Positions 16,102 through 50,865 of a DNA stretch of 64,000 nt are shown here, in pieces. Positions within the stretch are counted from its first letter, which is position 1, and each line of letters begins with the position of its first letter. The position numbers and the translations under genes were made by a program. Origin of the DNA: an uncultured Candidatus Peribacteria bacterium (lineage in GTDB: Bacteria > Patescibacteriota > Gracilibacteria > UBA1369 > LOWO2-01-FULL-3). The stretch lies in the NCBI GenBank assembly GCA_964356355.1, contig CAYHGX010000005.1, positions 495 through 64,494 on the forward strand, written 5' to 3'. The notes under the pieces are model-generated. The model was not told the DNA's origin, did not search any database, and saw nothing but the letters and a program-made list of their open reading frames with translations.

Positions 16102-16497
16102 TTAGTTTTTTTGCCAATTTAATAGTCTAACGTTATTTATTTCACCATTTTGAATTACTGTGATTTCTGCCTGATGATTTTGAGTGTAGTTTTCAAATGT
16201 TGTGCTTATTGATACTATTTTTGTGGTGCTTCCAATGATGGAAATTGTGCAAGTACCATAATCAAAGGTAATTGTTCCCCCTGAATAATTGATGTCCATT
16301 TTTATTTTTTGACTTGCCTCTTCAAAACAGGATTCAGCAATATAATAGGAGGATTTGTTTGATCTGGTATTTAGCTGTTGATATGAGCTGGTAACCTGGG
16401 TTTCCGATACCCCAATCACAATCAAGAGTAAAACAGCAGACATCACCAACACACTTATAAGCATAATTGCGCCTCTGATATTTTTTGTTTTCTTCAT
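16102..16497 (-). CDS. Minor pilin-like protein (PilX/GspK-like N-terminus, no Glu5)
   Basis: RGAIMLISVLVMSAVLLLIVIG hydrophobic N-terminus, 131 aa. ATGA overlap with the upstream gene. Confidence 0.5.
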   Translation of the reverse strand: MKKTKNIRGAIMLISVLVMSAVLLLIVIGVSETQVTSSYQQLNTRSNKSSYYIAESCFEEASQKIKMDINYSGGTITFDYGTCTISIIGSTTKIVSISTTFENYTQNHQAEITVIQNGEINNVRLLNWQKN

Positions 16498-20523: not shown

Positions 20524-20537
20524 TGTACATTTTGTTA

Positions 20538-24980: not shown

Positions 24981-26630
24981 CTAGATCTTGGTGAAATTTC
25001 CATGGGCTGGATCGGCGTAATCGCCGATTTTTGCGTTTGTGATGTTGCCGGAAATGGTTCCGGTGGCTCCGTCTCTTTGTTTGATGGCTTTGTTGGTAAT
25101 ATTATTGAGGATTTGTGCTCCAGTGGTACCTGTGAAGCGATACTCAATTGCATTGGGATAATCGTTTTCCATTAGGATAATATTGTTTTCGACTGTGACG
25201 TCCTTGGCCGTTTCAAGGATGATTCCGGCATCACCGCGAGTGGAGTTGTGATAGATTTTGTTGTTGCGAATTGCGCCGCCATTTTCCCCTCGATCTTCGC
25301 CCATGCCGAAGCCGATGGCCCGATCACAGTTAAGAAAGGTGTTGTTTTCCACTACTGTGTTTTTTGAGCTGGACCAAAAGTGAACTGCATCTTCAGCTAA
25401 GGCCTCTTCCGGGCTTTTGATAGCTATGAAGAGATTGTTTTTCACGATCCAATTTGCGGCGTTGTGGGCATCAATCCCACCAATATAGTATTGGGGACCG
25501 ATTCCGGCAGTATATTCCAGGGTGGAGCATTCTAGGATGCCATTGTCCGCGCCCAGATCCATTTTGCTAGCATCGTAGGAGACTTTAACCAGTTGCTCGT
25601 ATCCGTCAGTGATGTGGAGATTGTGAAGGAGTGCGCCATCGGCGTCCAATTCTCCATGGATTTGGATGACATGGTTGGCAACACCACCCAGCGACATATC
25701 GGCAATGGTGATGTTTTTTCCTGCTAAAAAGAATATGCGGGTGGTTTTGCCGGTCATGCCTTCACCTTTGAGAATAACTGCATCGCGATTGCCTGATGCG
25801 CTGCGAAAAATGATATTTGAGCCGCTTACCCAGAGGCCTTCTCCTGAAAAATTGTAAGTTCCATCTTTGAGAAGAATTGTGACATTACTGGTTTCATTGG
25901 CCTTGGCTACCGCCGTACGAAGCTCATCGACGTTTGAAACATTAATTGTGGTGCCGATCACTGTGTTTAGTGGGTCGCATTTGCCAATTGTGGTCGTGTT
26001 TGGGGGTGGAGTTGATTCTTTGCCGGTAAGTAACCGATAGAGCACCTCGGCAGCGGCGCCACGGGACATCGAGTTGCCTGGGTAATAGTAATCTCCCTCT
26101 TCTTCTAGGAGATTGTTGATTTGGGCTGTTTGCAGATATGGATAGTACCAGGCTGTTGTGGGTACATCTTTGAATTCTACTGTTGGTTGATCACCTTCTT
26201 TGAGCTCATTGATGAGAGTGATCATTTTGATGGCCTCTACTTTATTCACCTCCTGTTCTGGATGAAAATTGCCATCGGCGTAGCCCTGAACCCAACCGTG
26301 AGATTTGGCAAAACAAACGTAGCTGGCAAACCACTGACCGTTAACATCTGGAAAGCATTTGTCATAGGCAACAAAAGTGGGGTAATCGAATTTGCCGTTT
26401 GCATGGGTTGCGATTACTGCAAGCTTAAGGAGCTCGGCACGATTCAGGGTGCGATTCGGCTGAAAAGTGCCATCCTGGTAGCCCTGAATGATATTTTTGC
26501 TTTGAAGATATTCGATGGCTTCCTGATGTGGATCGTTTGCAATATCACTAAATGAAATAGCACTAACTGTCGGCAGATTTGTGCCTACAATTAGGATAAA
26601 AAATAATAGCCTTGCGACTAGTTTTTTCAT
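24981..26630 (-). CDS. Secreted protein with three SLH domains and a right-handed parallel beta-helix domain
   Basis: Signal peptide, then SLH-like repeats (FSDIANDPHQEAIEYL...GYQDGTFQPNRTLNRAELLKL and two more). After these come NN-rich beta-helix turns (VENNTFLNC, IRNNKIYHN, VENNIIL). Confidence 0.8.
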   Translation of the reverse strand: MKKLVARLLFFILIVGTNLPTVSAISFSDIANDPHQEAIEYLQSKNIIQGYQDGTFQPNRTLNRAELLKLAVIATHANGKFDYPTFVAYDKCFPDVNGQWFASYVCFAKSHGWVQGYADGNFHPEQEVNKVEAIKMITLINELKEGDQPTVEFKDVPTTAWYYPYLQTAQINNLLEEEGDYYYPGNSMSRGAAAEVLYRLLTGKESTPPPNTTTIGKCDPLNTVIGTTINVSNVDELRTAVAKANETSNVTILLKDGTYNFSGEGLWVSGSNIIFRSASGNRDAVILKGEGMTGKTTRIFFLAGKNITIADMSLGGVANHVIQIHGELDADGALLHNLHITDGYEQLVKVSYDASKMDLGADNGILECSTLEYTAGIGPQYYIGGIDAHNAANWIVKNNLFIAIKSPEEALAEDAVHFWSSSKNTVVENNTFLNCDRAIGFGMGEDRGENGGAIRNNKIYHNSTRGDAGIILETAKDVTVENNIILMENDYPNAIEYRFTGTTGAQILNNITNKAIKQRDGATGTISGNITNAKIGDYADPAHGNFTKI

Positions 26631-28136: not shown

Positions 28137-30452
28137 TTACTTGGTTACGGTTATGGTGAGTTCGAAACTGCTAACTGTATTCTGGGAATCACTAACTTCC
28201 AGCTTGACCTTGTAGGTACCGGCATTTTCGAAAATATGAGTTGGTTTAACCTGTGTTGAAGTGCCGCCATCTCCAAAGTCCCAAAGATAATTATTGATTG
28301 TGCCTGTAGAACATCCGGGATCTAAAGTAGTGGTAAGAGGTGCAATGCCATGATCGAATATTGTTGAGAAACAAGCGTTCAAGGGTATCTCTCGGACTGT
28401 GATTGTGGTGGTAGCGGTGCTTTGAGTGTTGTCAGAGCCAATTGCGGTAACAGTGGCAGTGTAGCTACCAATGGATACGTACTTGTGATTCATTTTTGCA
28501 GCACCCAATTTAGTGGGTGTCCCATCTCCAAAATCCCACCTATAGCTCACTATTTTACCCTTTGGATAAGTGGAGCCACTAGCATCAAAATTTACTGTTA
28601 GAGGTACTGTCCCGTCAACCTGATCGGCCTTGATGTCGGCGACGATGCCTTGTGATTCTACTTTAACAACAATAGTTGATTTCCCAATATTGCCATCACT
28701 ATCAGTTACCGAAAGGGTAACGTTGTAGGTGCCTTCCTGATTATAGATGAAACTTGTATGAGATCCCGCTCCATCAACTTTATCATCACCTGTAAAGTCC
28801 CACTGGTAATCAACGATGTTGTTATCGCTATCAGTGGAGCCGCTGGCGTCAAATACGACTGTAAGTGGTACCTTTCCTGAAAGCACAGAGGTGCTTATGT
28901 CTACAACTGGATCAGTGGTGATTTTTGCAACTGGTATCCCCTTTACGTTTCCAACTGTAATCTTCTTCACCTCGGTTCCATCTTCACCGGCTTCATCTGT
29001 GACAGTGAGCGTCACGTCGTAATTTCCTGCATTTGCAAAGGCATGAGCGGCTGTTTTTGTAGTTTCTGTTTTAGTGCCGTCCCCAAAATCCCAAGCATAT
29101 TTTTGAATTTTTCCTTTGGGTGATGTTGATCCATCAGATTTAAATATATAACTAGTGCCAATTGTATATTTGGCAGGTTCATCTGCAATGGTAATAACTG
29201 CAAGGGGCCCCTTGTGCTCTACAACTTCAATCTCCTTTTCGGTAACCGCTGATTCTCCGGTTGTATTTGTAACACGAAGTGAAACGGTATATTTTCCGAT
29301 CTTTTCAAATGTAAATTTAACCTTTTCTCCTTCAGCGTCTGAATAATCTCCATCACTGTTGAAATCCCATTCATAGGTATCAATATTTCCATCTGGATCC
29401 GAGGATTTACTGGCATCAAAATTTACCTCGAGTGGCGCATCTCCAGATTGGGGATCGGCCTCGAATAAGGCACTAAGAGCCTCGTTTGTGATGGAAACAG
29501 TCACATGGTATTCCCCGCCAACGCTAATTTCACCTGTATCTTTGTCCTTTACGTTTACAATTAATTTCACATCGTAAATTCCTTTGGTTTCATAGATGTG
29601 TGACACAATCTGGCTTGTACCGGTACTCTTGTCTCCAAAATCCCAATCGTGGGAGACAATTTGATATTTATCTTTATTAAGTGGAACATTGGTAGCATCA
29701 AATTTAATTTCGATTGGAGCACTAATATTTAAGGTTTCAGTTGGAGTAGTAATTATCGGATCAAGGAGTGACGGGGCTACCTCGGTGCGCTTAGAGTCCA
29801 AATATACGTAGGCAAATCCCCAAACTAAAAGGATGAGAGTGAGGGCAATGCCGGAGAAAAGGCTTTGACGTAAACCAGCCTTTTTCGCCTCTTTATCGTC
29901 ATGTTTCGCCATGCTGCTGCGGAAAAGGCCAATCATGGTAAATACGAAAGCGATTAAAGCAAAAGAGATAAATATGAGATGAATGAAGGTAATGAGTCCA
30001 TTAACAAAGGCTCCTTGATCTACGCCGAGAAGTTTTGCGATCGGACTAACACCAGCACCCGATTGTCCTAAGAAAACGAAGGAAAGGACGAGAGCAATGA
30101 GCAATACTGAACCAAAAGCCCCTAAACATCCAAGCATCGCCTTTTTACGAGCCTCTGGGTTTGGAGGTAGTGGTGGCTGTGGGCCGGATGGTGGTTTGTT
30201 CACGGTCTGTGGAACTGATGGAGCTACAGGAGTGGTAGAAACGGCTGGAATAGTAGCTGCTGGAGTGACTGGCAGTGTTGTTGGAGCCGGTGAGACACCT
30301 GGCATGATTGTGCGGTTTACAATTGGAGTTACTGGACTTTGTATGTCGTTTGTATATTTTTTAATTTCTGGGGCTGCTTGAGCCGGAGCTGCTGCTATTC
30401 CATCATCATCCTCGTCAGAGCCCACGTCTAGATCAATAAGTTTATCGTTCAT
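28137..30452 (-). CDS. Polytopic membrane protein with six PKD-like domains
   Basis: An acidic and Pro-rich N-terminus is followed by about 4 TM helices. Six repeats then carry W-D-F-G-D-G-like cores (WDFGDK, WDFNSDG, WDFGDG, WDFTGDD, WDFGDG, WDFGDG). Confidence 0.85.
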   Translation of the reverse strand: MNDKLIDLDVGSDEDDDGIAAAPAQAAPEIKKYTNDIQSPVTPIVNRTIMPGVSPAPTTLPVTPAATIPAVSTTPVAPSVPQTVNKPPSGPQPPLPPNPEARKKAMLGCLGAFGSVLLIALVLSFVFLGQSGAGVSPIAKLLGVDQGAFVNGLITFIHLIFISFALIAFVFTMIGLFRSSMAKHDDKEAKKAGLRQSLFSGIALTLILLVWGFAYVYLDSKRTEVAPSLLDPIITTPTETLNISAPIEIKFDATNVPLNKDKYQIVSHDWDFGDKSTGTSQIVSHIYETKGIYDVKLIVNVKDKDTGEISVGGEYHVTVSITNEALSALFEADPQSGDAPLEVNFDASKSSDPDGNIDTYEWDFNSDGDYSDAEGEKVKFTFEKIGKYTVSLRVTNTTGESAVTEKEIEVVEHKGPLAVITIADEPAKYTIGTSYIFKSDGSTSPKGKIQKYAWDFGDGTKTETTKTAAHAFANAGNYDVTLTVTDEAGEDGTEVKKITVGNVKGIPVAKITTDPVVDISTSVLSGKVPLTVVFDASGSTDSDNNIVDYQWDFTGDDKVDGAGSHTSFIYNQEGTYNVTLSVTDSDGNIGKSTIVVKVESQGIVADIKADQVDGTVPLTVNFDASGSTYPKGKIVSYRWDFGDGTPTKLGAAKMNHKYVSIGSYTATVTAIGSDNTQSTATTTITVREIPLNACFSTIFDHGIAPLTTTLDPGCSTGTINNYLWDFGDGGTSTQVKPTHIFENAGTYKVKLEVSDSQNTVSSFELTITVTK

Positions 30453-30461: not shown

Positions 30462-33400
30462 TTATTTGTATTTTATTTCCTGGTTCACTGAGTGCTCATT
30501 GCCATAAATGTCTTTTACAGTGAGCTTGGCAGTAGTTTTTCCCCATGATTGATCGTAATTTGTAGTCCAGGTCCCTGGGAAAACGGTTTTAAAATCTTCG
30601 TCATCGTTTGGAATTCCATTTCCGTTGGTATCGAAGTAGATATTCTTATCAATGATGTAATAGGCAATTGTGCCAATTGATTTTGAAAAATCGAATTTAA
30701 CGGTACCAACTGTGCCGGGCAGATAAACAATACCATCACTATCTGGCATTGGGTCAGTTGTGAGCATTGCTCTTAATGTTTCTAAGACATCCTTTGTTTC
30801 ATCTTTTATAGTTGAGGAGTCGGTAGTCACGGTTGAGTCACCGGGATTCACAAGATTGGTATCAACACTGTTTACTACAAAATCTTTATTGCCATAGTTG
30901 TCAGCAACTGTGAGTTTTACTTTGTAAATTCCTCCCAAAAGGTATTGGTACACTGGTTCGAATTCTGTTGAATTATTATCGTTGTCTTTTATTCCATCTC
31001 CATCACTGTCGGCTGTTGCCAGGGTGGATGCATTATCAAAGTCCCAAATATATTTTTCGACTTTTGCTCCGTGTTCTGAATCTGAAGTGGAGTTGTTTTT
31101 AAAGATCACTTTTCCGTCTACTACCTTGAAGGTAAATGCGGCGGTTGGAGGCAGAGATAAGGGTACAGTGAGGGTATTTACCACCTGATCGGTATTACCC
31201 TGATCATCGGTAATGGTAAGCTTTACTGTAAAGGTGCCTTGACCAGTAAACAGTCTTTCTGGATCTTTTGCCTGAGAGTCGACGTCGTTATCTTTGATGC
31301 CGTCGCCATCGCTATCTGAAGTTGCGGCGGTGGAGTTGGTATCGAAATCCCACTTATAGCTAATGATTTTGGCTCCGGCCTCTGGATCGGCTTCGGAATG
31401 ATTTGTGAATTTAACTTTTTTCCCTTCGCTACCATCAACCACCTTAAAGGTGAAGGCAGCATTTGGTGGCTTCGCGAGGGAATCAATGTAGATTCTTACT
31501 GGCTGAGAGATTGATTCTCCACCTTTGTCATCAACTACTTTGAGGCGTGCATTATAACCGTCAGTATTTTTCTGGGAGTAAATATATTCGTATGTGGCTT
31601 TTGTCGTGGGTTCATTATTATAAAAGCCATCACCTTCCGTGTCCCAAATATAGCTCTTTATTTGGCCATCGGAGTCGGTGGATGAACTAGAAAATATCAC
31701 CTTGTCTCCTGCATAGGCATTGGTTGTATTTACGCTGAATTTAGCTACAGGAAGCTCATTTGGTCCATTCACAACTTCTACTTTGCTAATTTCTGATTCA
31801 CTCATTGATTGATAATCCGGGGAGTAACTTAAGTTATCGGAATCTACGACCTCGAGTCCAAAGCCATATTTCATCTTTTCACCATTTTTCCCTCTAGTAC
31901 CAATTATTAGCTGAGCGTTTGGTGTTTTTGTGATCTGAATGCCAAGTGGTTCACTTGGATCGTCAACATCAAAATACCACCATTTATATTCGGTAATTTC
32001 GCCATCGATATCCTCAGCACCATAGGCTCTTACTTGAACCGTGACTGGCGTAACTAGCGCGCCAGATATGGCTACAGGTATAGCCTGAATGCTCGAAAAT
32101 CTTGGTGGTGAATTAACTACATCAATCTGAATTTCGTCGGTATCTGTTTTTTTGGCATCATCCTTGTCGGTAACAGTAAGTCTTACGGTGTAATAACCTG
32201 GATCAAGTGGACTCAGCTCCTTAAATTTGTGGTTTTCCAAGCGACTAGAGCTCTTGCCGGTGTCGCCAAAATCCCAACTATAAACTAGGTCGCGGCCGGT
32301 ACCATCTGTATTTTTTGAGGCCTCGGCATCGAAAGCAAGGATATCCTTTTTATTTACCTTAACAGGTTGAGAAAAATCACTAATGACAGCGTCATTCATT
32401 TTTAAGGTAATTTTGGCAACCGGCTTATCCCCTCCTCCAATAAAAATATTACGAGTAATCGTGGTGGAATTGTCCTCGGCATCATAAACTGTAACTTTCA
32501 CATTGTACTTGCCTGCCTGAAGGTAGTCGTGTGGAATTATTGCAGTGTTGTGAAGATCGCCGTTACTATTATTTCCGTCACCGAAGTCCACCTCGTAGGC
32601 GATTGCATTATCGCTGAGCACGTTAAAGTCCATGTGAGCCTTACCCTTGCCTTCTCCCTCTGTTGCCATAATTGAGGTAACTTCCTGCGTTGGTGCCCAG
32701 GCTACATCCAAAATATTATCGATTTTTATTTTCTTGGTTAATTCTGTGAATTCCTCCTGCTTAAGATTATCGACAACTTTGAGCGTTACATCGTAATCAC
32801 CTTTCTCGAGAAATTTGACTGTTGGGGTTGAAGTGGTAAGACCGTTGGCCACGTCTCCTTCATCTAGCTTCCATTTGCCCTCTGGCTTAATAGTCCATAA
32901 ATAACTGAAGGAATTATCATTGTTGTTATCGGGATCGAAGCTGGAAGAGCCGTCAAAGGCAACGGTGGCAGGTTGGTTTGGCTTAGGAGTTGAATAGTTG
33001 AAGAGTGCAACAGGGGGTTTTGAGCTGACTTTGTAGTCTGAAATTATAGCTGTTTTGTCTTCACTGCTGCCATCGCTAACTATTACCTGGATATCGTAGT
33101 CGAGCTGGTATTTGAATTGATGAGTAAGAGTACGAAGATTGGCTCCCGAAGCTTTAAATGGATAATCCTTGGCGATTTTAGCCTGAACCTCTGGCGGTGC
33201 CTTTTGAATGTTTTTCGCAGTAATTAGCCATTCATAGCTAACAATTTTGCCAAGATCTGAGTGAGATTCGCTGGCATCCAAAATAACATTTTGACCTACA
33301 AAAGCCTCGTTAGTTGGATTGGCTTTCAGAATTGCAGCTAATGACCCTACTTCAATTGTGAAGACTTTACTATCGGAAACTCCCAGCTGATTGGTGACGG

Positions 33401-35498
33401 TAAGCGTCACGTCGTATTTTCCGGGTTTTTTAATGCCGTCATAATCCAGAATTCCGTTTGAAGACTCAGTTGTGTAGCCATTACTTATTGTCCATTTATA
33501 TTTTTCGATGAGTTTAGTGCCGCTCGCATCAAGATGAATGCCATTGCCGCTCTTGGCGTCCTCGAGAGTTATTGAGACTGTCCGCAAATTGGACTCAAGG
33601 AAGTCTCCATTGTAGGCCATAATATCGATAGGATCGCGAGACCCAGCCTTCATGGTAAGGTTAATTTTATTTGTAGGTGGGCGTACCTTAATGGTTACAA
33701 CGCTAATACCCGGCGCAAATTTCGTGGCATCGTTGGAGTTGATTTTTACTGCCGCCGTGTAGGTACCGGGCTGATCGAAGCGACAACGTTTTGCGGTGTT
33801 GCTAACATATGAAGCCTGTTCTTCTGCTGGAATGCCGGTGAGGTCACAACTAACGCCTGGTGAGTTAATCACCTTGTTGCCACCTTCGTTGGCTGGATCA
33901 TAGTTAAATAATCCTGAAATCGTCCTTGCGCCTCCTATGTCCCAGACGATATTACTTTGACCATTTATGCTGCCTCCTGCAGGGTCGGAGCTACCAACGG
34001 TATCAAAAACTACTGTTAGTGGTGCTGCTCCCTCTACCACATTGGCACTTAATCTGGCCTGAACAAATTGTAGATTGGCCAGTTCATCATATAATATCGA
34101 ATGTTGCTTTAAGCCTTCAATCAGTAGTCCGCCAATTATATCAATGCTGGATTGAGAGTCTACGGTCCAAGCTTTTATATTTTGGAGAAGACCACCAGTC
34201 ACCGCTGAGACTGTGTAAATATTTGGATTATCGCGATCGGCTAATTCGGCAGTGTATCCATAGGCTGTTGCGCCCTTCATTATTTCGTAGGCTTTATTTG
34301 CATTACCGTCCTTTATCGCCTGGATATTCGAAAAGGACGAATAAATCTGTTCTAGTCGTTTAAATATTTCCTCAAGTTGTTTGCTATAGTCTGCAGCAAT
34401 GGGCTGAATGATTCCGTAGATATTAGGCAAAACCTCCTGCCTCAAGGGAGTACCTGCTTCATTTGCATGAATCGATGTGTAAGCCTGTTGAACCATATTC
34501 CACTTCTCGTAGAGACCAACCTGATAGGTGTCCTTATAGTGCTTTTTCTCCTTACAGTACCAATCTCTAAATTTCTCTCCATTGTAGGCCGCCCTAAATT
34601 CATCGGCAAAAGTCTTTTCGTCATCGCCAATGTCCTCCCTGGAGCAGTAGGACATTTTTCCGTCATTGCCGAGTTTCACAAGGTCTGTGTCGGTGAGAAT
34701 CTGGATGGAATCAAGGTCGGTGGCGATAGATCTGATTAATTCATTAATACGTGCCTCAGCCACAGTAAAGGCCTGCAGCTTTGATTTAATGGTTGTTAAT
34801 TTGCTTTGAACACTGATTAGGAAGTTAACAATGCTGGTTTTTGGAGGCAAGCTTTTTGGGTTCAAGGATTCCTTTTCGGCGTCATTTTTGATATTCTGTA
34901 GATCTTCGGAAGTTTCAGAAAGAAACTTAAAGCCATTGAAAATCTCAACGGCAAGCGACCGGACCTCCTCTGCTGAGGCGTTGAAGGCACCGCTACTTTT
35001 CCCCGTTGATCCCATAGATGAATTACCATCCACTCCCCCACCAGCACCCTTAATAACCGTATTAACAAAAGCATAAGACCCCATAACTATCAAAAGCCCC
35101 ACTACTGCGTAGCCGATGGCCTTTTTGGCAGTGCCCGTCTGGTCGTCATTGCCTCCGGAGATCACATAAAGCACGCCGGCATAGATAATTATAATGACAG
35201 CAATTAAGCCCAGGAAGCCAAGGGCGAAGTTCACAATTCTAATAACGAAACCTTTTAGATCGGAAGAGGAGGTAATTGCCGTGTCATAGCCATCTGGAGT
35301 AAGCTGAGCCAATTGTCCCTCGTACTGTGTGAAAGATAATCCTTGATCCCCGGTTTTAAACATTTCACCAGCGGCCTTGCCGGCATCAGCCCAAAATCCA
35401 GCATTGGCAACCGGCACAGTTGCTGCGAAAATCGAAAAAACAGCTGTAACAAGCAGCAATTTTAATAAATGTTTTTTTATTTTTAGGATGAGGGGCAT
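30462..35498 (-). CDS. Giant (1678 aa) surface protein: signal peptide, pilin-like two-helix hairpin, helical region, about 11 PKD-like domains
   Basis: The N-terminal hairpin is IVNFALGFLGLIAVIIIIYAGVLYVISGGNDDQTGTAKKAIGYAVVGLLIVMGSYAFVNTVI. PKD cores include WDFGD, WDFDT and WDFDN. DSDGDGIKDND inserts are present. Confidence 0.85.
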   Translation of the reverse strand: MPLILKIKKHLLKLLLVTAVFSIFAATVPVANAGFWADAGKAAGEMFKTGDQGLSFTQYEGQLAQLTPDGYDTAITSSSDLKGFVIRIVNFALGFLGLIAVIIIIYAGVLYVISGGNDDQTGTAKKAIGYAVVGLLIVMGSYAFVNTVIKGAGGGVDGNSSMGSTGKSSGAFNASAEEVRSLAVEIFNGFKFLSETSEDLQNIKNDAEKESLNPKSLPPKTSIVNFLISVQSKLTTIKSKLQAFTVAEARINELIRSIATDLDSIQILTDTDLVKLGNDGKMSYCSREDIGDDEKTFADEFRAAYNGEKFRDWYCKEKKHYKDTYQVGLYEKWNMVQQAYTSIHANEAGTPLRQEVLPNIYGIIQPIAADYSKQLEEIFKRLEQIYSSFSNIQAIKDGNANKAYEIMKGATAYGYTAELADRDNPNIYTVSAVTGGLLQNIKAWTVDSQSSIDIIGGLLIEGLKQHSILYDELANLQFVQARLSANVVEGAAPLTVVFDTVGSSDPAGGSINGQSNIVWDIGGARTISGLFNYDPANEGGNKVINSPGVSCDLTGIPAEEQASYVSNTAKRCRFDQPGTYTAAVKINSNDATKFAPGISVVTIKVRPPTNKINLTMKAGSRDPIDIMAYNGDFLESNLRTVSITLEDAKSGNGIHLDASGTKLIEKYKWTISNGYTTESSNGILDYDGIKKPGKYDVTLTVTNQLGVSDSKVFTIEVGSLAAILKANPTNEAFVGQNVILDASESHSDLGKIVSYEWLITAKNIQKAPPEVQAKIAKDYPFKASGANLRTLTHQFKYQLDYDIQVIVSDGSSEDKTAIISDYKVSSKPPVALFNYSTPKPNQPATVAFDGSSSFDPDNNNDNSFSYLWTIKPEGKWKLDEGDVANGLTTSTPTVKFLEKGDYDVTLKVVDNLKQEEFTELTKKIKIDNILDVAWAPTQEVTSIMATEGEGKGKAHMDFNVLSDNAIAYEVDFGDGNNSNGDLHNTAIIPHDYLQAGKYNVKVTVYDAEDNSTTITRNIFIGGGDKPVAKITLKMNDAVISDFSQPVKVNKKDILAFDAEASKNTDGTGRDLVYSWDFGDTGKSSSRLENHKFKELSPLDPGYYTVRLTVTDKDDAKKTDTDEIQIDVVNSPPRFSSIQAIPVAISGALVTPVTVQVRAYGAEDIDGEITEYKWWYFDVDDPSEPLGIQITKTPNAQLIIGTRGKNGEKMKYGFGLEVVDSDNLSYSPDYQSMSESEISKVEVVNGPNELPVAKFSVNTTNAYAGDKVIFSSSSTDSDGQIKSYIWDTEGDGFYNNEPTTKATYEYIYSQKNTDGYNARLKVVDDKGGESISQPVRIYIDSLAKPPNAAFTFKVVDGSEGKKVKFTNHSEADPEAGAKIISYKWDFDTNSTAATSDSDGDGIKDNDVDSQAKDPERLFTGQGTFTVKLTITDDQGNTDQVVNTLTVPLSLPPTAAFTFKVVDGKVIFKNNSTSDSEHGAKVEKYIWDFDNASTLATADSDGDGIKDNDNNSTEFEPVYQYLLGGIYKVKLTVADNYGNKDFVVNSVDTNLVNPGDSTVTTDSSTIKDETKDVLETLRAMLTTDPMPDSDGIVYLPGTVGTVKFDFSKSIGTIAYYIIDKNIYFDTNGNGIPNDDEDFKTVFPGTWTTNYDQSWGKTTAKLTVKDIYGNEHSVNQEIKYK

Positions 35499-35521: not shown

Positions 35522-36511
35522 TTAATTTGATTCTTGCAAATTTGGGTTGTTTGGATCCGGAAGCTTCACAAAAGTGGACACGATTGCAAAACTACCAAAA
35601 GCAAGTAGAAGTGCCACCAGAGCGCCAATTACGATTTTCTTCACCTTCTCGGTAGCCTCTTCATTGCCAGCAGAGACGACATACCTGTATCCACCATAAA
35701 ATAGAGTAACAAAAGAAAAGAGTGCCACAAAGCCTGAAACGTAGTTCGTGAGCTGAATAAGTAGCTTCCGGCCTGCATTAACGTCTGGCAAGGCACTTCC
35801 GTTGTCTGGAAAAATTATCACCCTTACTACCAGCTCCACCAACCCAATAATTATCAATCCTGCCACGGCATATAGAATATGTGTTTTTGCTTTTCCGATG
35901 GCCTCTTCATCTCCTGCACTGCCTATCAAGGTGACTCCACGAATTACAATTACAAAAACTGCAATGGCTCCAATAAAGGCCTCTACAAAGCCCACTACTC
36001 CCCTGATCTGAGAAACGCTTTCCTGGGCGTACATCTGGGCTGTCGCCACGTTTTCAAAGGCATCGCCGTTTTCGCCAAAGAACATTTTTTTCACAACGAC
36101 ATCGGCAAGTTGAATTACTAATAGTCCAATTGTTCCATATATAAGAGTATCTTTATTTTCTTCTGCTTTTGATTCGTCCGAGGTGGAAATTAGGCGGATA
36201 GCTGAAACAATAATCATTACGAGGGCAATTCCGCTCATAAAGTAACGGAATAGATCGAGTGCAAATAAAATTGGACTTGAAACTATATCGACTCCTTCTA
36301 GTGCAACCGGGGCGTCGGGATGAGTCGCTGCTGGGCCCGAAGTATAGTAATCGGGCAGGTTGGTCCCCTTTCCTATCTCTATCAATCTTTCTCCTGGCGT
36401 TTGCGTTGAGGATCCCGTTGCCTGGGCGTAAGTAAGGGTATTGGCATGTAACACAAGTACGAACGCGGTAAGTACTAAAGATGCTCCGAGTTTTACTAAA
36501 AATCTCTTCAT
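35522..36511 (-). CDS. Membrane protein built from three tandem VirB2/TrbC-like (T4SS-pilin-like) hairpin modules
   Basis: Signal peptide plus three copies of helix-turn-helix-type hairpins whose turns read LISTSDESKAEENK, LIGSAGDEEAIGKAK and VVSAGNEEATEKVKK. Confidence 0.7.
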   Translation of the reverse strand: MKRFLVKLGASLVLTAFVLVLHANTLTYAQATGSSTQTPGERLIEIGKGTNLPDYYTSGPAATHPDAPVALEGVDIVSSPILFALDLFRYFMSGIALVMIIVSAIRLISTSDESKAEENKDTLIYGTIGLLVIQLADVVVKKMFFGENGDAFENVATAQMYAQESVSQIRGVVGFVEAFIGAIAVFVIVIRGVTLIGSAGDEEAIGKAKTHILYAVAGLIIIGLVELVVRVIIFPDNGSALPDVNAGRKLLIQLTNYVSGFVALFSFVTLFYGGYRYVVSAGNEEATEKVKKIVIGALVALLLAFGSFAIVSTFVKLPDPNNPNLQESN

Positions 36512-36512
36512 A

Positions 36513-37475
36513 TTATTGGGCTATGGCCTGGATATCTTCTAAGCGACCAGCTAAAACGGTACTAACAAGAGCAAATGCGCCATAAACAATCACTATCCCA
36601 CCAATTGAGGCAAAAATTATACGCTTTGCGCGCTCTACGGCTGTGTCTTCGCCTCCTGCGGTGGCATACATAACTCCGCCAATCAACAACATGAGTACAG
36701 CTGCAGGACCAACAAAACTCACAACAAGATTAGTAATTCCTACTATTTGCTCAACTCCAGCTTTGGCATCGGAATACGGATGAGCTCCAGTAATGCCAGA
36801 ATAGGAGGTTTTATCAATTTTATAGAAGACCTTATTAATAAATACATCTCCAAGATAAACCAGAACCAATCCTGACAAACTATACATAATGCTTTTTTTG
36901 TGCTTCGCTGTAGTCTCCTCATTTCCACCGGCTGTTATCAATTTCGCTGCGGACCGGACAATCATTACCACGGCGTATGAACCGATCACGTATTTCACAA
37001 AGGTCACAAATATCTCCACTTGCTTATCAAAAAGATGTACCCGCTGAAGAATGCTCTGTGGGCTACCAAAAAGAGTATCTTTGCGCATATCAAAAATAGC
37101 AGCAACATCTTGGGACATACTGATCATCACGAAGGCGATAATACTATAAATGATGCCGCGAGTAGCTCTGGAGACCTCTTCTTCGTTGCCACTTGCCGTA
37201 ATAAGGGTGAAGCCCATCAAACTAATAAAAAGCAAACCAATTACGCCTGTGAGCACTTTTACATATGGCAAAACTCCATTAATCACAAATTCAACTACTG
37301 CCTGCTGCCCTTCTCCTGACCCTATGTCCGGAGTGGGAATTTGAGCAGATTTATAAATACCATATGCACTATCCGGCATAGGCAAAGAGCTTGCCAAAGC
37401 CATGTTTCCAATTAAGACGGCCGAAACCGCCATGATCGCTAGAAACTGCAGTGCTGTTTTTAGAATTTGTTTCAT
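36513..37475 (-). CDS. Paralogous three-module pilin-like membrane protein
   Basis: Same architecture as 35522..36511, with turns LITASGNEEEVSRATR, LITAGGNEETTAKHKK and YATAGGEDTAVERAKR. 1-nt gap to the next gene. Confidence 0.7.
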   Translation of the reverse strand: MKQILKTALQFLAIMAVSAVLIGNMALASSLPMPDSAYGIYKSAQIPTPDIGSGEGQQAVVEFVINGVLPYVKVLTGVIGLLFISLMGFTLITASGNEEEVSRATRGIIYSIIAFVMISMSQDVAAIFDMRKDTLFGSPQSILQRVHLFDKQVEIFVTFVKYVIGSYAVVMIVRSAAKLITAGGNEETTAKHKKSIMYSLSGLVLVYLGDVFINKVFYKIDKTSYSGITGAHPYSDAKAGVEQIVGITNLVVSFVGPAAVLMLLIGGVMYATAGGEDTAVERAKRIIFASIGGIVIVYGAFALVSTVLAGRLEDIQAIAQ

Positions 37476-37559
37476 TTTTATTTTAATTTTCCCTATATTT
37501 TAGCATATTTCAGCCTTTTTCTCAAGCACAACAGTACAAAAGCGCTAAATTAAGTTCCC

Positions 37560-37588
37560 TTGCATTTCCAGACTATTATATGTACTAT
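37560..37588 (+). promoter_or_regulatory. Promoter candidate for secE-nusG (TTGCAT-17-TACTAT)
   Basis: Hexamers with 17-nt spacing, about 50 nt upstream of secE. Confidence 0.3.
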
Positions 37589-37638
37589 GCACACAGAAGG
37601 CCAAGGCCTTTTTAGAGATATCAGAAAACCGTACTATT

Positions 37639-38459: not shown

Positions 38460-39386
38460 ATGAGAAAGTTTACTGTTTTTACAGTGATTCTAGCGATTAC
38501 GGTGATTGTGACCGTGTCAGAAATGTTCGTAAACAATTATTTGCCTAGTCTACAGAGTGGAGAGAAAAAAGATCTTTCACTTACTCTTCCGGAGAGTCTT
38601 GATTTATCAAAAATCGTAAAAACAGATACTTTTGCTGCGGATGAGAATAGCGATGTAGACCCAACCCTCACGAACAAACTGGGTTCTGATGTAGTAAAGG
38701 AAAGCACCTCCACATTCGTAGATGAAACCAGTCCAACTCCAACCCCTATCGCTCCTGTCAAGAGTAAACCTGGCGAGTTGGCCAACCTGTATGACACCGA
38801 CCCTACTTTCACGGGCTCATATGACAACGCTATTCCAGTTCCAGCTGATCAAACTGGAAAATCGCCAGTACCAACCGTTCCGGCAGTAACTGCAAACAGT
38901 AGTGGAAAGGCCGATGATTTTGAGGACCCAAACTACAGTGCCAGTGGCGTAAACGTGACTTTAAGGCAGGACCAAATAGAAAGTGCAGGTTTTTATAATG
39001 CATACATTGAATCAGAGGCTAGCGATGGAAAATTATTCAAGACGATTGATGTGCTTGATCTTTACGACACCCAGATGCAGAAATTTGTCATTCGCAGCAA
39101 AGAGGAAATGATGGCTAAGGCTTACATTTTCAGCGTTGGATCGAGTACTAAAATTGACGAGGTGTATCAATTGATCAAGTCTAGATGTGGACAAACCCCG
39201 CTTGTTACAATCAACGAAACAAATGGCTTTGGTAGTGAGAGTTTTTACATGAATGACTCAAGCAGAAGTAATACTGTGTTTTTGACTGTTCGAGTTGGGC
39301 AAGCTATTTATGCTTTTTCATACCCTAAAACCTATCATCAGCAGGTTAAAAACCTACTGCAGCTGATTACTTGGGAAATAGATTAA
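38460..39386 (+). CDS. Hypothetical membrane-anchored/secreted protein inserted between nusG and rplK
   Basis: 308 aa with an N-terminal TM helix, a Pro/Thr-rich linker and an unrecognised C-terminal domain. Confidence 0.6.
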   Translation: MRKFTVFTVILAITVIVTVSEMFVNNYLPSLQSGEKKDLSLTLPESLDLSKIVKTDTFAADENSDVDPTLTNKLGSDVVKESTSTFVDETSPTPTPIAPVKSKPGELANLYDTDPTFTGSYDNAIPVPADQTGKSPVPTVPAVTANSSGKADDFEDPNYSASGVNVTLRQDQIESAGFYNAYIESEASDGKLFKTIDVLDLYDTQMQKFVIRSKEEMMAKAYIFSVGSSTKIDEVYQLIKSRCGQTPLVTINETNGFGSESFYMNDSSRSNTVFLTVRVGQAIYAFSYPKTYHQQVKNLLQLITWEID

Positions 39387-47521: not shown

Positions 47522-48853
47522 ATGAAGAAAATTCTCTTGATTGGATGTGGAGCGAGGGAGCATGTGATTGCCGAAACATTGAAAAAAAGTAGGCATGATG
47601 TGGAGCTTTATGTGGTGGGAAAAACTAGAAATCCCGGGATTGTGGCACTGGCTGAGGAGTGTTGTTTTGCTGATGTGTGTGACTTGGAGGCCATTGGGCA
47701 TTTTGCTAAGAGCGTGGAGCCGGACTTTGCGGTGGTGGGGCCGGAGGCCCCGATTGAGGCCGGTGTGACAGATATGCTTTTGGAGATGGGAATTCATAGT
47801 GCTTCACCGCTGAAAACGGTAGGAAGGCTGGAAAGCTCAAAATCTTTTACGAGAGACCTGATGGAGAAATATGGAATTGCTGGGAATCCAAAGTTTAAAA
47901 CGTTTTATAGTATTGAGGGAGTTGAGAAATTTTTAAAGGAACTGGATGAGGCTTTTGTCGTGAAGGCTGATGGGCTTAAGGGAGGAAAAGGCGTGAAGGT
48001 TTCAGGAGAACATTTGAATACGAGAGCGGAAGCGATGGCCTATATTTTAGAGTGTATAGAGGATTGCGGAAAGGTAGTGATTGAAGAGAAATTGGTGGGA
48101 CAGGAGTTTAGCTTGATGAGCTTTTGTGACGGCGTACATACGGTGGAGATGCCGTGTATTCAAGATCATAAGAGGGCTTACGAGGGAGACACGGGGCCGA
48201 ATACTGGTGGGATGGGAACATATGGATGTGCCAATCACCTACTTCCATTTTTGACGGAGGCAGATGTGATGGCTGCGGCTGAGATTACCAGGAAAATGGC
48301 ACGGGCTTTATTTGAGGAGACTGGAACTTATTTTAAAGGCGTAATGTATGGTGGATTTATGGCAACAAAAAAGGGTGTTGGACTGATTGAGTATAATGCT
48401 CGATTTGGTGATCCCGAGGCAATGAATGCACTATGCTTATTGAAGAGTGACTTGGTAGATATTTGTGAGGCTATTATTAGTGGTGGACTTGGCGATGTGA
48501 AGGTGGAGTTTGAAAAAAAGGCCACAGTTTGCAAATATGTGGTGCCGGAGGGATATCCTGATGAGGCGGTGAAAAACGTGGGAGTGGAGGTGGAAGAGGC
48601 TTTTGCGGAGAGTGAGAAAAACGAGGGCCTGAAAATTTACTTTGCTTCTGTGGATGAGCGGGAGGATGGCTTGTACCTGGCTGGATCAAGAGCGATTGCT
48701 ATGGTGGGAATTGCCGATACACTAGAGAAGGCGGAGCAGATTGCGGAAAATGGAGCAGGAATGATTAAGGGGCCGGTGTTTCATCGCAAGGACATTGGGA
48801 CTTCAGCGCTTGTGGAAAAGCGCATTCAGATGATGCGAGATTTGCGGGGCTAG
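47522..48853 (+). CDS. purD: Phosphoribosylamine-glycine ligase
   Basis: MKILLIGCGAREH start and an ATP-grasp core (VVKADGLKGGKGV, EFNARFGDPE). Confidence 0.93.
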   Translation: MKKILLIGCGAREHVIAETLKKSRHDVELYVVGKTRNPGIVALAEECCFADVCDLEAIGHFAKSVEPDFAVVGPEAPIEAGVTDMLLEMGIHSASPLKTVGRLESSKSFTRDLMEKYGIAGNPKFKTFYSIEGVEKFLKELDEAFVVKADGLKGGKGVKVSGEHLNTRAEAMAYILECIEDCGKVVIEEKLVGQEFSLMSFCDGVHTVEMPCIQDHKRAYEGDTGPNTGGMGTYGCANHLLPFLTEADVMAAAEITRKMARALFEETGTYFKGVMYGGFMATKKGVGLIEYNARFGDPEAMNALCLLKSDLVDICEAIISGGLGDVKVEFEKKATVCKYVVPEGYPDEAVKNVGVEVEEAFAESEKNEGLKIYFASVDEREDGLYLAGSRAIAMVGIADTLEKAEQIAENGAGMIKGPVFHRKDIGTSALVEKRIQMMRDLRG

Positions 48854-50865
48854 GCGACGGCTCTTATTAGGGCGGCGTGGTCGAAGGCCTTGATGGTGGT
48901 TTTTAATTTTTTGTAGCGGGCGAGTTTATCTTCCATGGAGTATGGCGGCTGAACTTCTGTGGCCTCTGGGGCTTGCGCTGGTTTGGCAGCAGTTTTTTTG
49001 GTGGACATTGATGCACCATAAAACTGTGCCCTTTTCTCATTTACGAAGTTAGAAACTTTCTCTCCCAACTGATCCAGGAAGGACTGAAGGGCAGGAAGTG
49101 CGCTCTTGAGTGTAGCAATCGCTTTTTGCAGCGTAGTGGTTGCAGTAGCCTCTGCAACAGCCTCTGTTTTTTCTTCCTCGGTAACTGCATCTTTTGGTAC
49201 AGGATTTAGCTCGGTACCTTTGAGCAATCTGAGTTGTCTCAAAAGTTTGTTGTAGAGTTTGAAGTATTGAACAAACATACGGTCATAGTTCTCGGTATTA
49301 ATATCTCGAGCTACCTCCTGGTTTTTGAGGAGGTCTTTTTGACTTTGTAACTCCTTCTCGAGATCGTCGGGATTGATGGTTTCCGGAGAGAGGGCGACGC
49401 GTTCGTAGGTAGCCTTAAGTCGATCCATTGAATGAACGGCCTTGGTGAGAACGTACATATTCATAAATTGGGTTGCAGCTGCGTGCTGATCACCATCATT
49501 TAGCGCCTTTATCGTGGCCTCAATGTGAACTATAAACTTTTGACTGAAAGACAATAATGGTTCGAAGGTCATTTTTGCGGCTTCGCCCTTCATGTATTCG
49601 AGGTTTCTGATCATTGCAGCCTTTTTATTCCAATTTAGAGGCTGGCTTGGGTTGAGGATGGAAAATGATCGATGTGTAGCCTCGACTTTTCTCAGGAATA
49701 AAGCCATTGGCTGGATATTTGAAGCACGGATTTGCTCAACTTTAATGGAGTCCTTGGCAAGGTATTCCCAGCTTTCTTCGATGGTTTGGAGACGGGCACC
49801 AAGATAGTCTTTGGCTCTTTCTATTTGGACTATCTTTGCCTGTGGATTGAAGCGACCTTTAATATCTTTGAGTGTGATGGCGCGTTTTACCATTTCCCTG
49901 AGCTTGATTTTATCTGGGTCATCAACATTTTCTAGTTGATCGATGCACTTGCCCATCGTTTCTGAAATTTTTTCTCGCGTCGCTGGATCCAAATTTCTCC
50001 ATGCGTCCAGATCTGCGATGATGGAGTTGAGCAGCTCTTCAATCATTTTCAGAATTCCAATTTCATCTTCGTAGCTTTTGTCGATCTCTTTTAGGCGAAG
50101 ACTAGAGTCGTAAAGATCTGTTTTGAAAAGAGTTTTTGTCTTTTCTCTTTCGCCCTCGCGGCCTGTGTAAACATGCTGGGTGCCGACTAAATACCCCTGT
50201 ACGGTGCGCATGAGGCGGAAGTAGCGGCCCTGGGCGGGGTCTTTTTCGTCGGGCCGGCGGATCGGCTCTAGCGCCATGAGCATATCGCGAACGGCTTCAA
50301 CTGCCTGATTTCTAAGTTCGCCACGCTGCACCATGTCGGCCCCTTTTGGTGGAAGGAATCTATCTAGGCCAAGATTTCTGAGCCTGGTATTGGTATTGCG
50401 GCGGGAATCAAGAATAACTCTACCCAGTGTAGCTGGATCATTGCCCTCTTCTCTTTTTTTAAGCGCTATGCGCTCTGTTGAATGGGAGCCAATGTCTATT
50501 ACTGTTTTAGCCATGCTGCGCGGACTTGCATCATATTCTTCAGGAGTGGCGGGACCATATTGGGCCCAAAGTGGATTACCCTCCATTTGCCTTAGCTTAG
50601 AGCGGATTACTCCATGAAGAACCTTAATGCGGCGACCAATAGCCGCGTCGGTTCTTGGCTCCTGCCTTTCTCTGTCCTTATAGAAAATATCAAATAATTC
50701 TCGGTCAACTTGGGGATTAGAGAATCTACCATGACCATCTCCTGTGCCATAGGCAGGATTTTGCTGGATATACTTATTGTAGTCGGAGGCAAATCCGGGA
50801 GAAAACCTATCTACCGTATCTACTGATTCGTTTGCTTCATTTTCCAAGTTTTCTGATGCCATCAT
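48850..50865 (-). CDS. Large hypothetical soluble protein (671 aa)
   Basis: Uninterrupted ORF, charged and helical, with no TM helix and no recognisable motif. Its stop shares a CTAG with the purD stop. Confidence 0.6.
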   Translation of the reverse strand: MMASENLENEANESVDTVDRFSPGFASDYNKYIQQNPAYGTGDGHGRFSNPQVDRELFDIFYKDRERQEPRTDAAIGRRIKVLHGVIRSKLRQMEGNPLWAQYGPATPEEYDASPRSMAKTVIDIGSHSTERIALKKREEGNDPATLGRVILDSRRNTNTRLRNLGLDRFLPPKGADMVQRGELRNQAVEAVRDMLMALEPIRRPDEKDPAQGRYFRLMRTVQGYLVGTQHVYTGREGEREKTKTLFKTDLYDSSLRLKEIDKSYEDEIGILKMIEELLNSIIADLDAWRNLDPATREKISETMGKCIDQLENVDDPDKIKLREMVKRAITLKDIKGRFNPQAKIVQIERAKDYLGARLQTIEESWEYLAKDSIKVEQIRASNIQPMALFLRKVEATHRSFSILNPSQPLNWNKKAAMIRNLEYMKGEAAKMTFEPLLSFSQKFIVHIEATIKALNDGDQHAAATQFMNMYVLTKAVHSMDRLKATYERVALSPETINPDDLEKELQSQKDLLKNQEVARDINTENYDRMFVQYFKLYNKLLRQLRLLKGTELNPVPKDAVTEEEKTEAVAEATATTTLQKAIATLKSALPALQSFLDQLGEKVSNFVNEKRAQFYGASMSTKKTAAKPAQAPEATEVQPPYSMEDKLARYKKLKTTIKAFDHAALIRAVA

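Follow-up and report, generated by a model that had tools for sequence, protein, structure and literature searches.

Paralogous genes encoding triple tandem VirB2-like hairpins beside genes for giant PKD proteins in an uncultured Candidatus Peribacteria bacterium

Introduction

The pilins of the VirB2/TrbC type (PF04956, with PF18895 as the branch of CPR bacteria and monoderms) are small, stand-alone, polymerising subunits with a leader, two hydrophobic helices, and a short charged loop. In Patescibacteria, VirB2-like pilin genes occur in tandem arrays of 2 to 11 divergent members, and such arrays were found near virB4 in 1135 of 1948 assemblies (PMC12102498). Ca. Southlakia epibionticum has six such genes, all essential, within its T4SS locus (PMC10633639, PMC12857230); in Saccharibacteria, separate pilin genes lie inside an essential T4SS cluster (PMC10633639). 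PrgF, which is encoded by the plasmid pCF10, is also VirB2-like, and its loop, with both acidic and basic residues, lines the lumen of the modelled pilus (bioRxiv 10.64898/2025.12.18.695078). Few gene sets have been shown to be essential for cultivated Patescibacteria to live as epibionts, and the VirB2-like arrays are one of them. Fusion of hairpins is familiar from a different setting. In the c/K proteolipids of V- and A-type ATPases, a self-associating hairpin has been fused into chains of 2, 3, and up to 13 hairpins, and the number of units per chain is fixed.

Here we describe two adjacent genes, P1 and P2, in a 64,000-nt stretch of DNA from an uncultured Candidatus Peribacteria bacterium (the window; all coordinates are positions in it). 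P1 and P2 share the leader, the two hydrophobic helices, and the short charged loop with VirB2/TrbC pilins, and they match the profile of the Mbov_0395 pilin-like protein (NF045849), a pilin-like family of mycoplasma ICEs. Unlike VirB2/TrbC pilins, they have three hairpins per chain and lie outside a T4SS cluster, as chromosomal core genes beside secE-nusG. As in the patescibacterial arrays, divergent units (about 15 to 30% identical) stand side by side, here six plus one on a third protein, P3. In contrast to those arrays, the units of P1 and P2 are domains covalently joined 3+3, their order is invariant across the phylum, and the locus, which is without VirB4, is linked to genes for giant PKD proteins. 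PrgF, from a Gram-positive plasmid, resembles P1 and P2 in its monoderm setting and in the mixed charge of its loop, but it is a single hairpin, it belongs to a conjugation operon that includes the VirB6-like PrgH, and experiments have established its part in conjugation (bioRxiv 10.64898/2025.12.18.695078). With the c/K proteolipids P1 and P2 share an evolutionary logic by analogy only: the proteins are not homologous, P1 and P2 are not surrounded by ATPase genes, and nothing points to a ring.

Results

P1 (320 aa; 36513..37475) and P2 (329 aa; 35522..36511) are both on the minus strand. The initial annotation described each protein as a signal peptide followed by three copies of one hairpin, and the three hairpins were borne out by the ORFs, which lie exactly at the coordinates given there, and by profile searches. 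PF18895 (T4SS_pilin) matched P1 and P2 with 70.4 and 67.0 bits, respectively (cut-off, 26.6), in three stretches each, and NCBIfam NF045849 likewise matched three stretches in either protein. When isolated hairpins were compared to Pfam, PF18895 was found in 43 of 43 and PF04956 (TrbC/VirB2) in 20 of 43, with a best E value of 3.6e-6. No transporter family was above threshold in Pfam or NCBIfam. Both proteins start with a signal-peptide-like segment (aa 1-28 in P1) that has AXA-like cleavage sites, judged by eye only; if this N-terminal helix were left uncleaved, the orientation of the hairpins would not change.

Only 1 nt separates the stop codon of P1 from the start codon of P2, a spacing that is compatible with coupled translation. 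The P1/P2 module is divergent from secE-nusG, and the 163-nt spacer between P1 and secE contains two sigma-70-like promoter matches (37497..37604, minus strand), which are matches to the consensus only.

By local profile search, the first two hairpins of P1 are at aa 55-128 (37092..37313) and aa 143-222 (36810..37049), and those of P2 are at aa 71-151 (36059..36301) and aa 160-239 (35795..36034), all on the minus strand. The first P1 hairpin forms a conserved class (P1r1), the second has the class-specific motifs RVxLFDKQVEIF and GDIFINKVFYKVDK, and each of the two P2 hairpins has a conserved class of its own. The third hairpins, at aa 237-314 of P1 (36534..36767, minus strand) and aa 244-321 of P2 (35549..35782, minus strand), are of a "terminal type"; that of P1 is nearest to single-hairpin pilins and to the hairpin of P3, and that of P2 was used for a single-hairpin AlphaFold2 model. 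P2 also has a conserved outer segment of about 50 aa.

We compared the six repeats and the P3 hairpin in all 21 pairs by Smith-Waterman alignment with 500 shuffles. In 19 of the 21 pairs z was 5 to 21, with the observed score reached by at most 1 of the 500 shuffles, and the repeats are significantly similar; the two weak pairs both include P2 repeat 1. The P3 hairpin was the nearest relative of repeat 3 in both P1 and P2. P1 and P2 aligned in register with an E value of 1e-24, versus 5e-16 with a shift of one repeat, and the profiles of the two families also aligned in register (hhalign E value, 1.4e-28). Judged from these alignments, P1 and P2 are true paralogues, as the initial annotation had it, and they arose when a gene that already had three hairpins was duplicated long ago.

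Hydropathy plots of P1 and P2 show the N-terminal hydrophobic segment and six more hydrophobic segments in each. The AlphaFold2 model of P2 (87 sequences; pLDDT, 85.8) has six helices of 31 to 43 residues, with turns of 3 to 4 residues inside the hairpins and linkers of 9 to 10 residues between them. Because the motif at the turn is G-G-x-E-E followed by K-x-K-K, the turns are mixed in charge, not purely acidic. The six-helix architecture proposed earlier and the topology logic that places the linkers outside are upheld, but the description of the turns as simply acidic is not. Charged residues are also conserved inside the hydrophobic stretches. A Foldseek search of the PDB with the full P2 model gave nothing meaningful (best E value, 0.29); with the single-hairpin model the best E value was 1.5, and the matches were generic helical hairpins, with no pilin among the best 50. 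The fold comparison with solved conjugative pilins (TraA, VirB2, TrwL) was uninformative and should not be read as a negative, and it favours neither a filament nor the ring or platform suggested by the initial annotation. Searching the PDB sequences with the repeat profile gave no match.

All 213 P1 and P2 orthologues have exactly three hairpins, including every one of the 120 P1 orthologues. The six hairpin positions fall into six conserved classes: hairpins scored 128 to 146 bits against their own class but 13 to 58 bits against the others, and class-specific charged motifs lie at the outer ends of the hairpin helices. Because of the constant three hairpins and the six distinct classes, a fixed composition is supported for P1 and P2.

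The same is not true of the hairpin family at large. A search with a single-repeat profile gave 259 representative proteins at an E value of ≤1e-30. Among the best 150 of these, all had 3 to 17 matched stretches except one that had 2, and about 100 were not orthologues of P1 or P2. The multi-copy proteins belong to many unrelated families and include one archaeal protein, and they extend a median of 2 residues beyond the last repeat. In other CPR lineages fused and single forms are mixed within the same arrays, and syntenic loci have 6x versus 7x proteins; therefore, a fixed number cannot be generalised to the family, and the fixed stoichiometry that had been suggested is supported for P1 and P2 but not family-wide. 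A universal rule of six hairpins could be read from six being the third commonest copy number and from the six pilin genes of S. epibionticum, but it was rejected because of the syntenic 6x and 7x proteins. From the profile matches, fused hairpin proteins are recurrent and not unique to P1 and P2, which weakens the initial claim that such concatenation is unusual. The case against that claim is half made, since the fused forms recur and are already labelled in databases as PF18895, "pilin," or hypothetical.

Downstream of the pair is P3 (1678 aa; 30462..35498, minus strand). Its signal-peptide-like start is followed by a single hairpin (aa 76-155; 35034-35273), and the long remainder, which is predicted to be extracellular, contains at least seven PKD/Ig-like domains. 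P4 (771 aa; 28137..30452, minus strand) is without a signal peptide; its N-terminus is Pro-rich and precedes a first TM helix, and the protein has six PKD domains. A weak hairpin-like helix pair in P4 (aa 149-209; 29826-30008) scored 7.6 bits, a score as high as which was given by 0 of 100 shuffles; a hairpin-like anchor of P4 is weakly supported. P3 also weakly matched the NCBIfam family PamR. CPR bacteria do have Pam pili, which are Ig-like donor-strand pili (bioRxiv 10.64898/2026.03.03.709456), but such pilins are unrelated to the hairpin and we rejected the link.

The gene order [3x][3x][giant with one hairpin and PKD domains] is constant in about 35 Peregrinibacteria and Peribacteria species genomes, in which the giant third protein has 1450 to 2030 aa. 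A P3-type giant follows the 3x pair at every orthologous locus with enough sequence, and at the three loci with Pfam-annotated neighbours (L001 to L003) the P3 counterpart is followed by a PKD protein of 719 to 765 aa. This invariable coupling of the 3x pair to hairpin-anchored giant PKD proteins, which the initial annotation missed, is the strongest clue. Within one phylum, slow rearrangement could be part of the cause of the constant order. Related arrangements occur elsewhere: one other lineage has 8x, 1x, a fusion of 1x with PKD domains, and a PKD protein, in that order; a second Peregrinibacteria locus has a 7x protein followed by a PKD protein; and other CPR groups have single-hairpin giants of 1340 to 3458 aa beside a smaller hairpin gene.

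The 64-kb window contained none of VirB4, VirB6, and VirD4, and no VirB4 or VirD4 was found within ±10 kb of the module at L001 to L003 (Pfam gene lists). At 88 loci with hairpin arrays, we found no VirB4 among ORFs of at least 450 aa with a Walker A motif, which comprised only ComM, FtsH, SMC, ClpB, and a VirD4-like protein (L007). One Peregrinibacteria contig has a 7x hairpin gene with a VirD4-like gene 4 kb away; beside other Peregrinibacteria arrays the large ORFs are housekeeping, except for one 347-aa ATPase of the T2SSE family. T4SS parts are frequently dispersed in the class Gracilibacteria (PMC12102498).

Discussion

The most likely reading, to which we give a probability of roughly 45%, is that P1 and P2 constitute a fused, fixed-order form of the CPR pilin array from which a hairpin assembly of defined composition is built, one that anchors or presents PKD adhesins. 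P1 and P2 would be polytopic proteins of the cytoplasmic membrane whose turns face the cytoplasm and whose helix ends and linkers are external, and would be the fused, fixed-order counterpart of the single-hairpin pilin gene arrays of other CPR bacteria. Transcribed as one operon, they would be made together. We infer that P1 packs against P2, and both against the N-terminal hairpin of P3 and probably that of P4, to give a hetero-oligomer. This assembly may anchor the long PKD adhesin-like proteins and present them at the cell surface, and it may either stay in the membrane or be extruded, as a short stalk resembling a pilus, by a T4SS encoded elsewhere. In favour of this reading are the three PF18895 hairpins and six long helices per protein, the constant hairpin number and the six distinct classes, the in-register paralogy, the conserved gene order, the like arrangements in other lineages, the mixing of fused and single forms in arrays, and the absence of VirB4 and VirD4 from the window and from the surroundings of the module at L001 to L003. 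Extrusion of P1 and P2 as a pilus is possible, since by sequence the hairpin family is homologous to polymerising pilins and the separate pilin genes of Saccharibacteria lie inside an essential T4SS cluster (PMC10633639).

That homology, seen in the match of P1 and P2 to VirB2/TrbC profiles, is also the starting point for a different reading, in which P1 and P2 are T4SS "poly-pilins" that a VirB4-type machine encoded elsewhere extracts from the membrane and that polymerise into a conjugative-type pilus, each chain supplying three neighbouring subunits, and P3 is a minor subunit that bears an adhesin. The predicted helices, like those of pilins, exceed the length required to span a bilayer, and the mixed-charge loop is like the lumen-lining loop of PrgF (bioRxiv 10.64898/2025.12.18.695078). 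The VirB2-like arrays of S. epibionticum are essential and lie within its T4SS cluster (PMC10633639), T4SS parts are often scattered in Gracilibacteria (PMC12102498), and the VirD4-like gene near the 7x gene points the same way. However, VirB4, VirB6, and VirD4 were absent from the window and from the surroundings of the Pfam-checked orthologous modules. In addition, six non-equivalent, separately conserved hairpins are a poor fit to the quasi-equivalent positions of a helical homopolymer, six helices would presumably be harder to extract from the membrane than the two of a pilin, and the Foldseek matches were generic helical hairpins with weak E values (0.29 and 1.5). We regard this reading as possible but, on balance, doubtful.

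The same lack of machinery genes close by also fits a reading of P1 and P2 as ordinary polytopic proteins (a channel, a transporter, or a membrane organiser) that descended from hairpins and sit beside PKD genes by inherited order, with no functional link. Their six TM helices each, the conserved charges within hydrophobic stretches, and the absence of extracellular domains of their own (multi-copy proteins end a median of 2 residues past their final repeat) are consistent with this. We nevertheless consider it improbable: the coupling of multi-hairpin and PKD proteins recurs in another lineage with another copy number and at the second Peregrinibacteria locus, the P3 hairpin is closest to repeat 3 of both proteins, and no transporter family was detected above threshold. 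Very improbable, in our judgement, is that the triplets form a closed ring like the c/K rotor of A/V-type ATPases, with the hairpins per chain setting the ring size. The idea comes from analogy with archaeal A-ATPases, in which the hairpin of the proteolipid occurs in duplicated, triplicated, and 13-fold forms, and E. coli subunit c was among the fold matches, although not significantly (ranks 3 and 50; E values of 1.9 and 4.7). Against it, P1 and P2 had no sequence match to ATP-synthase subunit c in Pfam or the PDB, the window has no atp or ntp genes, the fold matches were generic, and copy number ranges from 3 to 17 and differs between syntenic loci.

Beyond this locus, a large share of the CPR hairpins now called T4SS pilins might belong to a VirB4-independent envelope apparatus, in which poly-pilins (3x to 8x or more) and the single N-terminal hairpins of giant PKD/Ig adhesins form an anchor or stalk of fixed composition on which host-attachment proteins are displayed. 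We think this extension unlikely. If it were true, it would describe how wall-bearing, ultrasmall symbionts display such proteins, and the label of secretion pilin would be wrong for many hairpins.

The pairing with giant PKD proteins suggests a testable role for P1 and P2, the surface display of attachment proteins, and the separate conservation of each hairpin position hints that one unit cannot stand in for another. If P1 and P2 do polymerise, the short outer linkers would limit which neighbouring positions in the polymer are open to one chain. With two genes, six fixed hairpins, a defined stoichiometry, and a phylum-wide distribution, the pair is also a simpler system to study.

Two adjacent genes encode triple VirB2-like hairpins

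The paralogues P1 (320 amino acids [aa]; positions 36513 to 37475) and P2 (329 aa; 35522 to 36511) are adjacent open reading frames (ORFs) on the minus strand, with 1 nucleotide (nt) between the P1 stop codon and the P2 start codon. Pfam family PF18895 (T4SS_pilin; cut-off, 26.6 bits) matches three separate stretches per protein, with 70.4 and 67.0 bits, and the NCBIfam model NF045849 (Mbov_0395 pilin-like conjugal transfer protein) also matches three stretches in each. Both proteins have an N-terminal hydrophobic leader and six hydrophobic segments by hydropathy. Thus, the two adjacent triple-hairpin proteins described in the initial annotation are real. The similarity among their repeats was confirmed by local alignment of the six P1/P2 repeats and the single hairpin of P3, the gene downstream of P2, with 500 shuffles per pair: 19 of 21 pairs had z values of 5 to 21, their observed scores being reached by at most 1 of 500 shuffles. 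P1 and P2 align in register with an E value of 1e-24 and shifted by one repeat with an E value of 5e-16.

The AlphaFold2 model of P2 (87 homologues; pLDDT 85.8; pTM 0.64) has six helices of 31 to 43 residues each, with predicted turns of 3 to 4 residues within hairpins and linkers of 9 to 10 residues between them. An N-terminus that faces outward requires cytoplasmic turns and external linkers, regardless of leader cleavage. The initial annotation had the linkers facing outward if the acidic turns were cytoplasmic; given an outward N-terminus the topology stands, but the turn motif, G-G-x-E-E followed by K-x-K-K, is of mixed charge and not simply acidic.

When hairpins were searched in isolation, PF18895 matched all 43, PF04956 (TrbC/VirB2) matched 20 (best E value, 3.6e-6), and DUF6112 matched 18. 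Judged by these profile matches, the P1/P2 hairpins belong to the VirB2/TrbC superfamily. A sequence search of the PDB with the hairpins gave no match, and fold searches with the model of whole P2 and with that of one hairpin (pLDDT 87.4) returned only generic, nonsignificant helical matches. The Pam pilus, a system described recently in CPR bacteria, was considered and ruled out because its Ig fold is unrelated. VirB2-like proteins include PrgF of Gram-positive plasmids (bioRxiv 10.64898/2025.12.18.695078) and the products of tandem arrays of 2 to 11 genes in Patescibacteria (PMC12102498); Ca. Southlakia epibionticum has six essential pilin genes within its T4SS locus (PMC10633639, PMC12857230). 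The patescibacterial arrays consist of separate genes, whereas the P1 and P2 hairpins are fused, three per gene. We found no description of VirB2-like hairpins fused in one gene in the searchable literature.

The triple architecture is conserved and predates the gene duplication

The named homologues belong to Candidatus Peregrinibacteria/Peribacteria, within CPR/Patescibacteria. Homologue searches gave about 100 P2-type and 200 P1-type clusters at 90% identity, 300 to 400 aa long and labeled "pilin," "Type IV secretion system pilin," or hypothetical. All 213 full-length orthologues have exactly three hairpins, which supports, for this phylum, the fixed stoichiometry proposed in the initial annotation. 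The 3x architecture is therefore real and well conserved. Hairpins of the six gene-and-position classes score 128 to 146 bits with their own profile and 13 to 58 bits with the other five, and their outer helix ends carry conserved charged motifs specific to each class, such as GDIFINKVFYKVDK (P1, hairpin 2), IQLADxxVKKMFFGEQGE (P2, hairpin 1), and SEVVVRGxIFPEAG (P2, hairpin 2). Profile-profile alignment matched the P1 and P2 families at full length and in register (255 columns; probability, 99.8%; E value, 1.4e-28); the duplicated gene was therefore already triple, and the duplication occurred long ago. The two copies are now 26% identical. The P3 hairpin is the nearest relative of repeat 3 in P1 and P2, and repeat 3 also resembles the final repeat of other multi-hairpin proteins.

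The triple pair is partnered with giant PKD proteins

The P2 gene is followed on its strand, after gaps of 23 nt and 9 nt, by two PKD-domain genes. In P3 (30462 to 35498, minus strand; 1678 aa), a leader and one hairpin (aa 76 to 155) precede at least seven PKD/Ig-like domains. P4 (28137 to 30452, minus strand; 771 aa) lacks a signal peptide; its N-terminus is Pro-rich, and it contains a first transmembrane (TM) helix, a pair of helices weakly resembling a hairpin, and six PKD domains. That pair scores 7.6 bits against the hairpin profile, a value reached by 0 of 100 shuffles. P4 seems to enter the membrane by its first TM helix, and the helix pair after it, a degenerate hairpin with the turn KHDDKEAKKAG, would be an eighth hairpin-like unit of the operon. 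A profile scan found no further hairpin genes in the window.

Scanning one genome per GTDB species gave 158 related stretches, from which 79 loci were retained and covered by a six-frame hairpin-profile scan. All of the approximately 35 Peregrinibacteria/Peribacteria loci with enough sequence have the order 3x, 3x, and a giant protein of 1450 to 2030 aa with one hairpin. Loci L001 to L003, from two Pfam-annotated genomes with only 46 to 48% protein identity to the window, have divergent secE-nusG, two 3x genes, a hairpin-plus-PKD protein of 1522 to 1633 aa, and a PKD protein of 719 to 765 aa.

Fused hairpins recur in other lineages

We searched 1.84 billion representative proteins with a profile built from the seven hairpins of the window. 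There were 60,351 matches at E ≤ 1e-3; the number fell to 8,338 at E ≤ 1e-10 and to 259 at E ≤ 1e-30. All except one of the best 150 of these 259 had 3 to 17 matched stretches. A recount of 149 of the best 150 gave copy numbers of 3 (n = 99), 4 (n = 29), 5 (n = 4), 6 (n = 9), 7 (n = 4), and 2, 8, 9, and 16 (n = 1 each); only about 48 were P1/P2 orthologues. The sequences inspected were clean hairpin concatemers. By these searches, hairpin fusion is a recurrent theme of the family, yet a rare one, at roughly 0.4% of representatives at E ≤ 1e-30. Because such proteins recur and already bear a Pfam label, the earlier description of the fusion as unusual has to be toned down.

Fused and single units occur together. 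Arrays of single-hairpin genes contain 4x, 6x, and 7x proteins, and in one other lineage the genes after an 8x protein encode a single hairpin, a 1x-PKD fusion, and a PKD protein, in that order. Two syntenic loci have 6x and 7x proteins; thus, a constant copy number is a feature of Peregrinibacteria and not of the family in general. The peregrinibacterial locus L007 (3691 to 6288 and 10001 to 14347) has a 7x protein followed by an 803-aa PKD protein, with a gene for a VirD4-like coupling protein 4 kb away; neighboring genes encode peptidoglycan-binding and DPBB (RlpA-like) domains. At L009, a cysteine-rich protein of 1775 aa (10001 to 15328; listed Pfam matches, PF04956 TrbC and PF18895 T4SS_pilin) has 17 hairpin stretches in the library search and 10 in the local scan. 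It looks archaeal, judged by its rpl39e neighbor; a Cas4-like gene is also nearby. Its 11x relative P0185 has a non-hairpin C-terminal domain.

Arrays of 5 to 12 single-hairpin genes occur in Magasanikbacteria, Kerfeldbacteria, Buchananbacteria, Doudnabacteria, and Saccharibacteria, and some of these groups have giant one-hairpin proteins of up to 3458 aa. The hairpin appears to be widespread in CPR bacteria as the N-terminal anchor of giant surface proteins. Giants of about 3450 aa with a single hairpin are found at L059, L065, L070, and L079 (Magasanikbacteria and a Patescibacteria MAG), preceded in three of the four by a one-hairpin protein of about 710 aa.

Peregrinibacteria/Peribacteria also have a second hairpin locus, a 1x-1x-2x-1x array (L066, at 7232 to 11101; L069; L085), followed in all three by metG on the opposite strand. 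A 347-aa T2SSE-family ATPase, VirB11- or PilT-sized, directly precedes the L066 array. It may be this array that is associated with a machine, rather than the 3x pair. CPR-type hairpin loci also occur in several GenBank records titled Nitrospirota or Gammaproteobacteria MAGs (L010, L011, L016, L030, L057, L061, L062, and others); their gene content looks patescibacterial, and the bins may be mislabeled or contaminated.

Possible nature of the assembly

The simplest reading, which is tentative (probability, about 0.45), takes P1 and P2 to be a fused pilin array. Their hairpins, with the P3 anchor and perhaps that of P4, would form a defined hetero-oligomeric assembly that holds or presents the adhesin-like P3 and P4 at the surface. 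This assembly may be a ring or platform, as the initial annotation suggested, or a filament. Four results point this way: two co-expressed chains supply six non-equivalent, individually conserved hairpins; their partnership with giant PKD proteins, whose sole membrane element is one hairpin of the same family, is invariable; a secretion ATPase is absent nearby, with no VirB4, VirD4, or VirB6 genes found within the 64-kb window; and fused and unfused units mix freely in other lineages.

The main alternative, which we consider somewhat unlikely, is that P1 and P2 are subunits of a T4SS pilus whose assembly machine is encoded elsewhere, P3 being an adhesin-bearing minor subunit. The homology of the family to pilins and the long helices agree with such a pilus, as does the dispersal of T4SS genes reported in the class Gracilibacteria (PMC12102498). 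The pilus and the surface-presenting anchor differ mainly in that only the former would leave the membrane. It is improbable that P1 and P2 lie next to the PKD giants purely incidentally, given that the coupling recurs in the lineage with the 8x protein. A c-ring-like rotor, for which analogy is the sole support, is very improbable. The triple-hairpin pair is of value mainly as a sign that, in CPR bacteria, assemblies of hairpins and giant surface proteins may be linked.

Surroundings of the operon

The window is a stretch of ordinary chromosome, in which secE, nusG, a 308-aa gene, rplK, and rplA lie divergent from P1. The 308-aa gene (38460 to 39386; N-terminal TM helix, no Pfam match) interrupts the otherwise universal secE-nusG-rplK-rplA cluster, and L001 and L002 have a gene of 261 to 297 aa without a Pfam match at the same spot. 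Beyond P4 lie genes for two small membrane proteins and for one protein with an SLH domain, and about 8 kb farther along is a type IV pilus operon. The three SLH-domain proteins of the window (24981 to 26630; 54638 to 55984, which also has a FlgD-Ig-like domain; and 60065 to 61342) suggest an anchoring system of the S-layer or secondary-cell-wall-polymer type.

The type IV pilus operon (12726 to 22247, minus strand) is complete and encodes a PilB-like ATPase with an MshEN domain (20538 to 22247), PilC (19315 to 20523), a 551-aa PilM-PilN fusion (14434 to 16089), and two paralogous pilins of 146 aa each (12726 to 13166 and 13200 to 13640). It also has several pilins with the N-methylation motif; one pilin of 614 aa (17006 to 18850) carries LVIVD/beta-propeller repeats. 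At E ≤ 1e-5, Pfam matches nothing in three large ORFs of 992, 671, and 584 aa (46 to 3024, 48850 to 50865, and 62220 to 63974). Elsewhere in the window are purine, folate, and aromatic amino acid genes, and a single 572-aa ORF (51818 to 53536) is a TyrA-PheA fusion of prephenate dehydrogenase (PDH_N, PDH_C), prephenate dehydratase (PDT), and an ACT domain.
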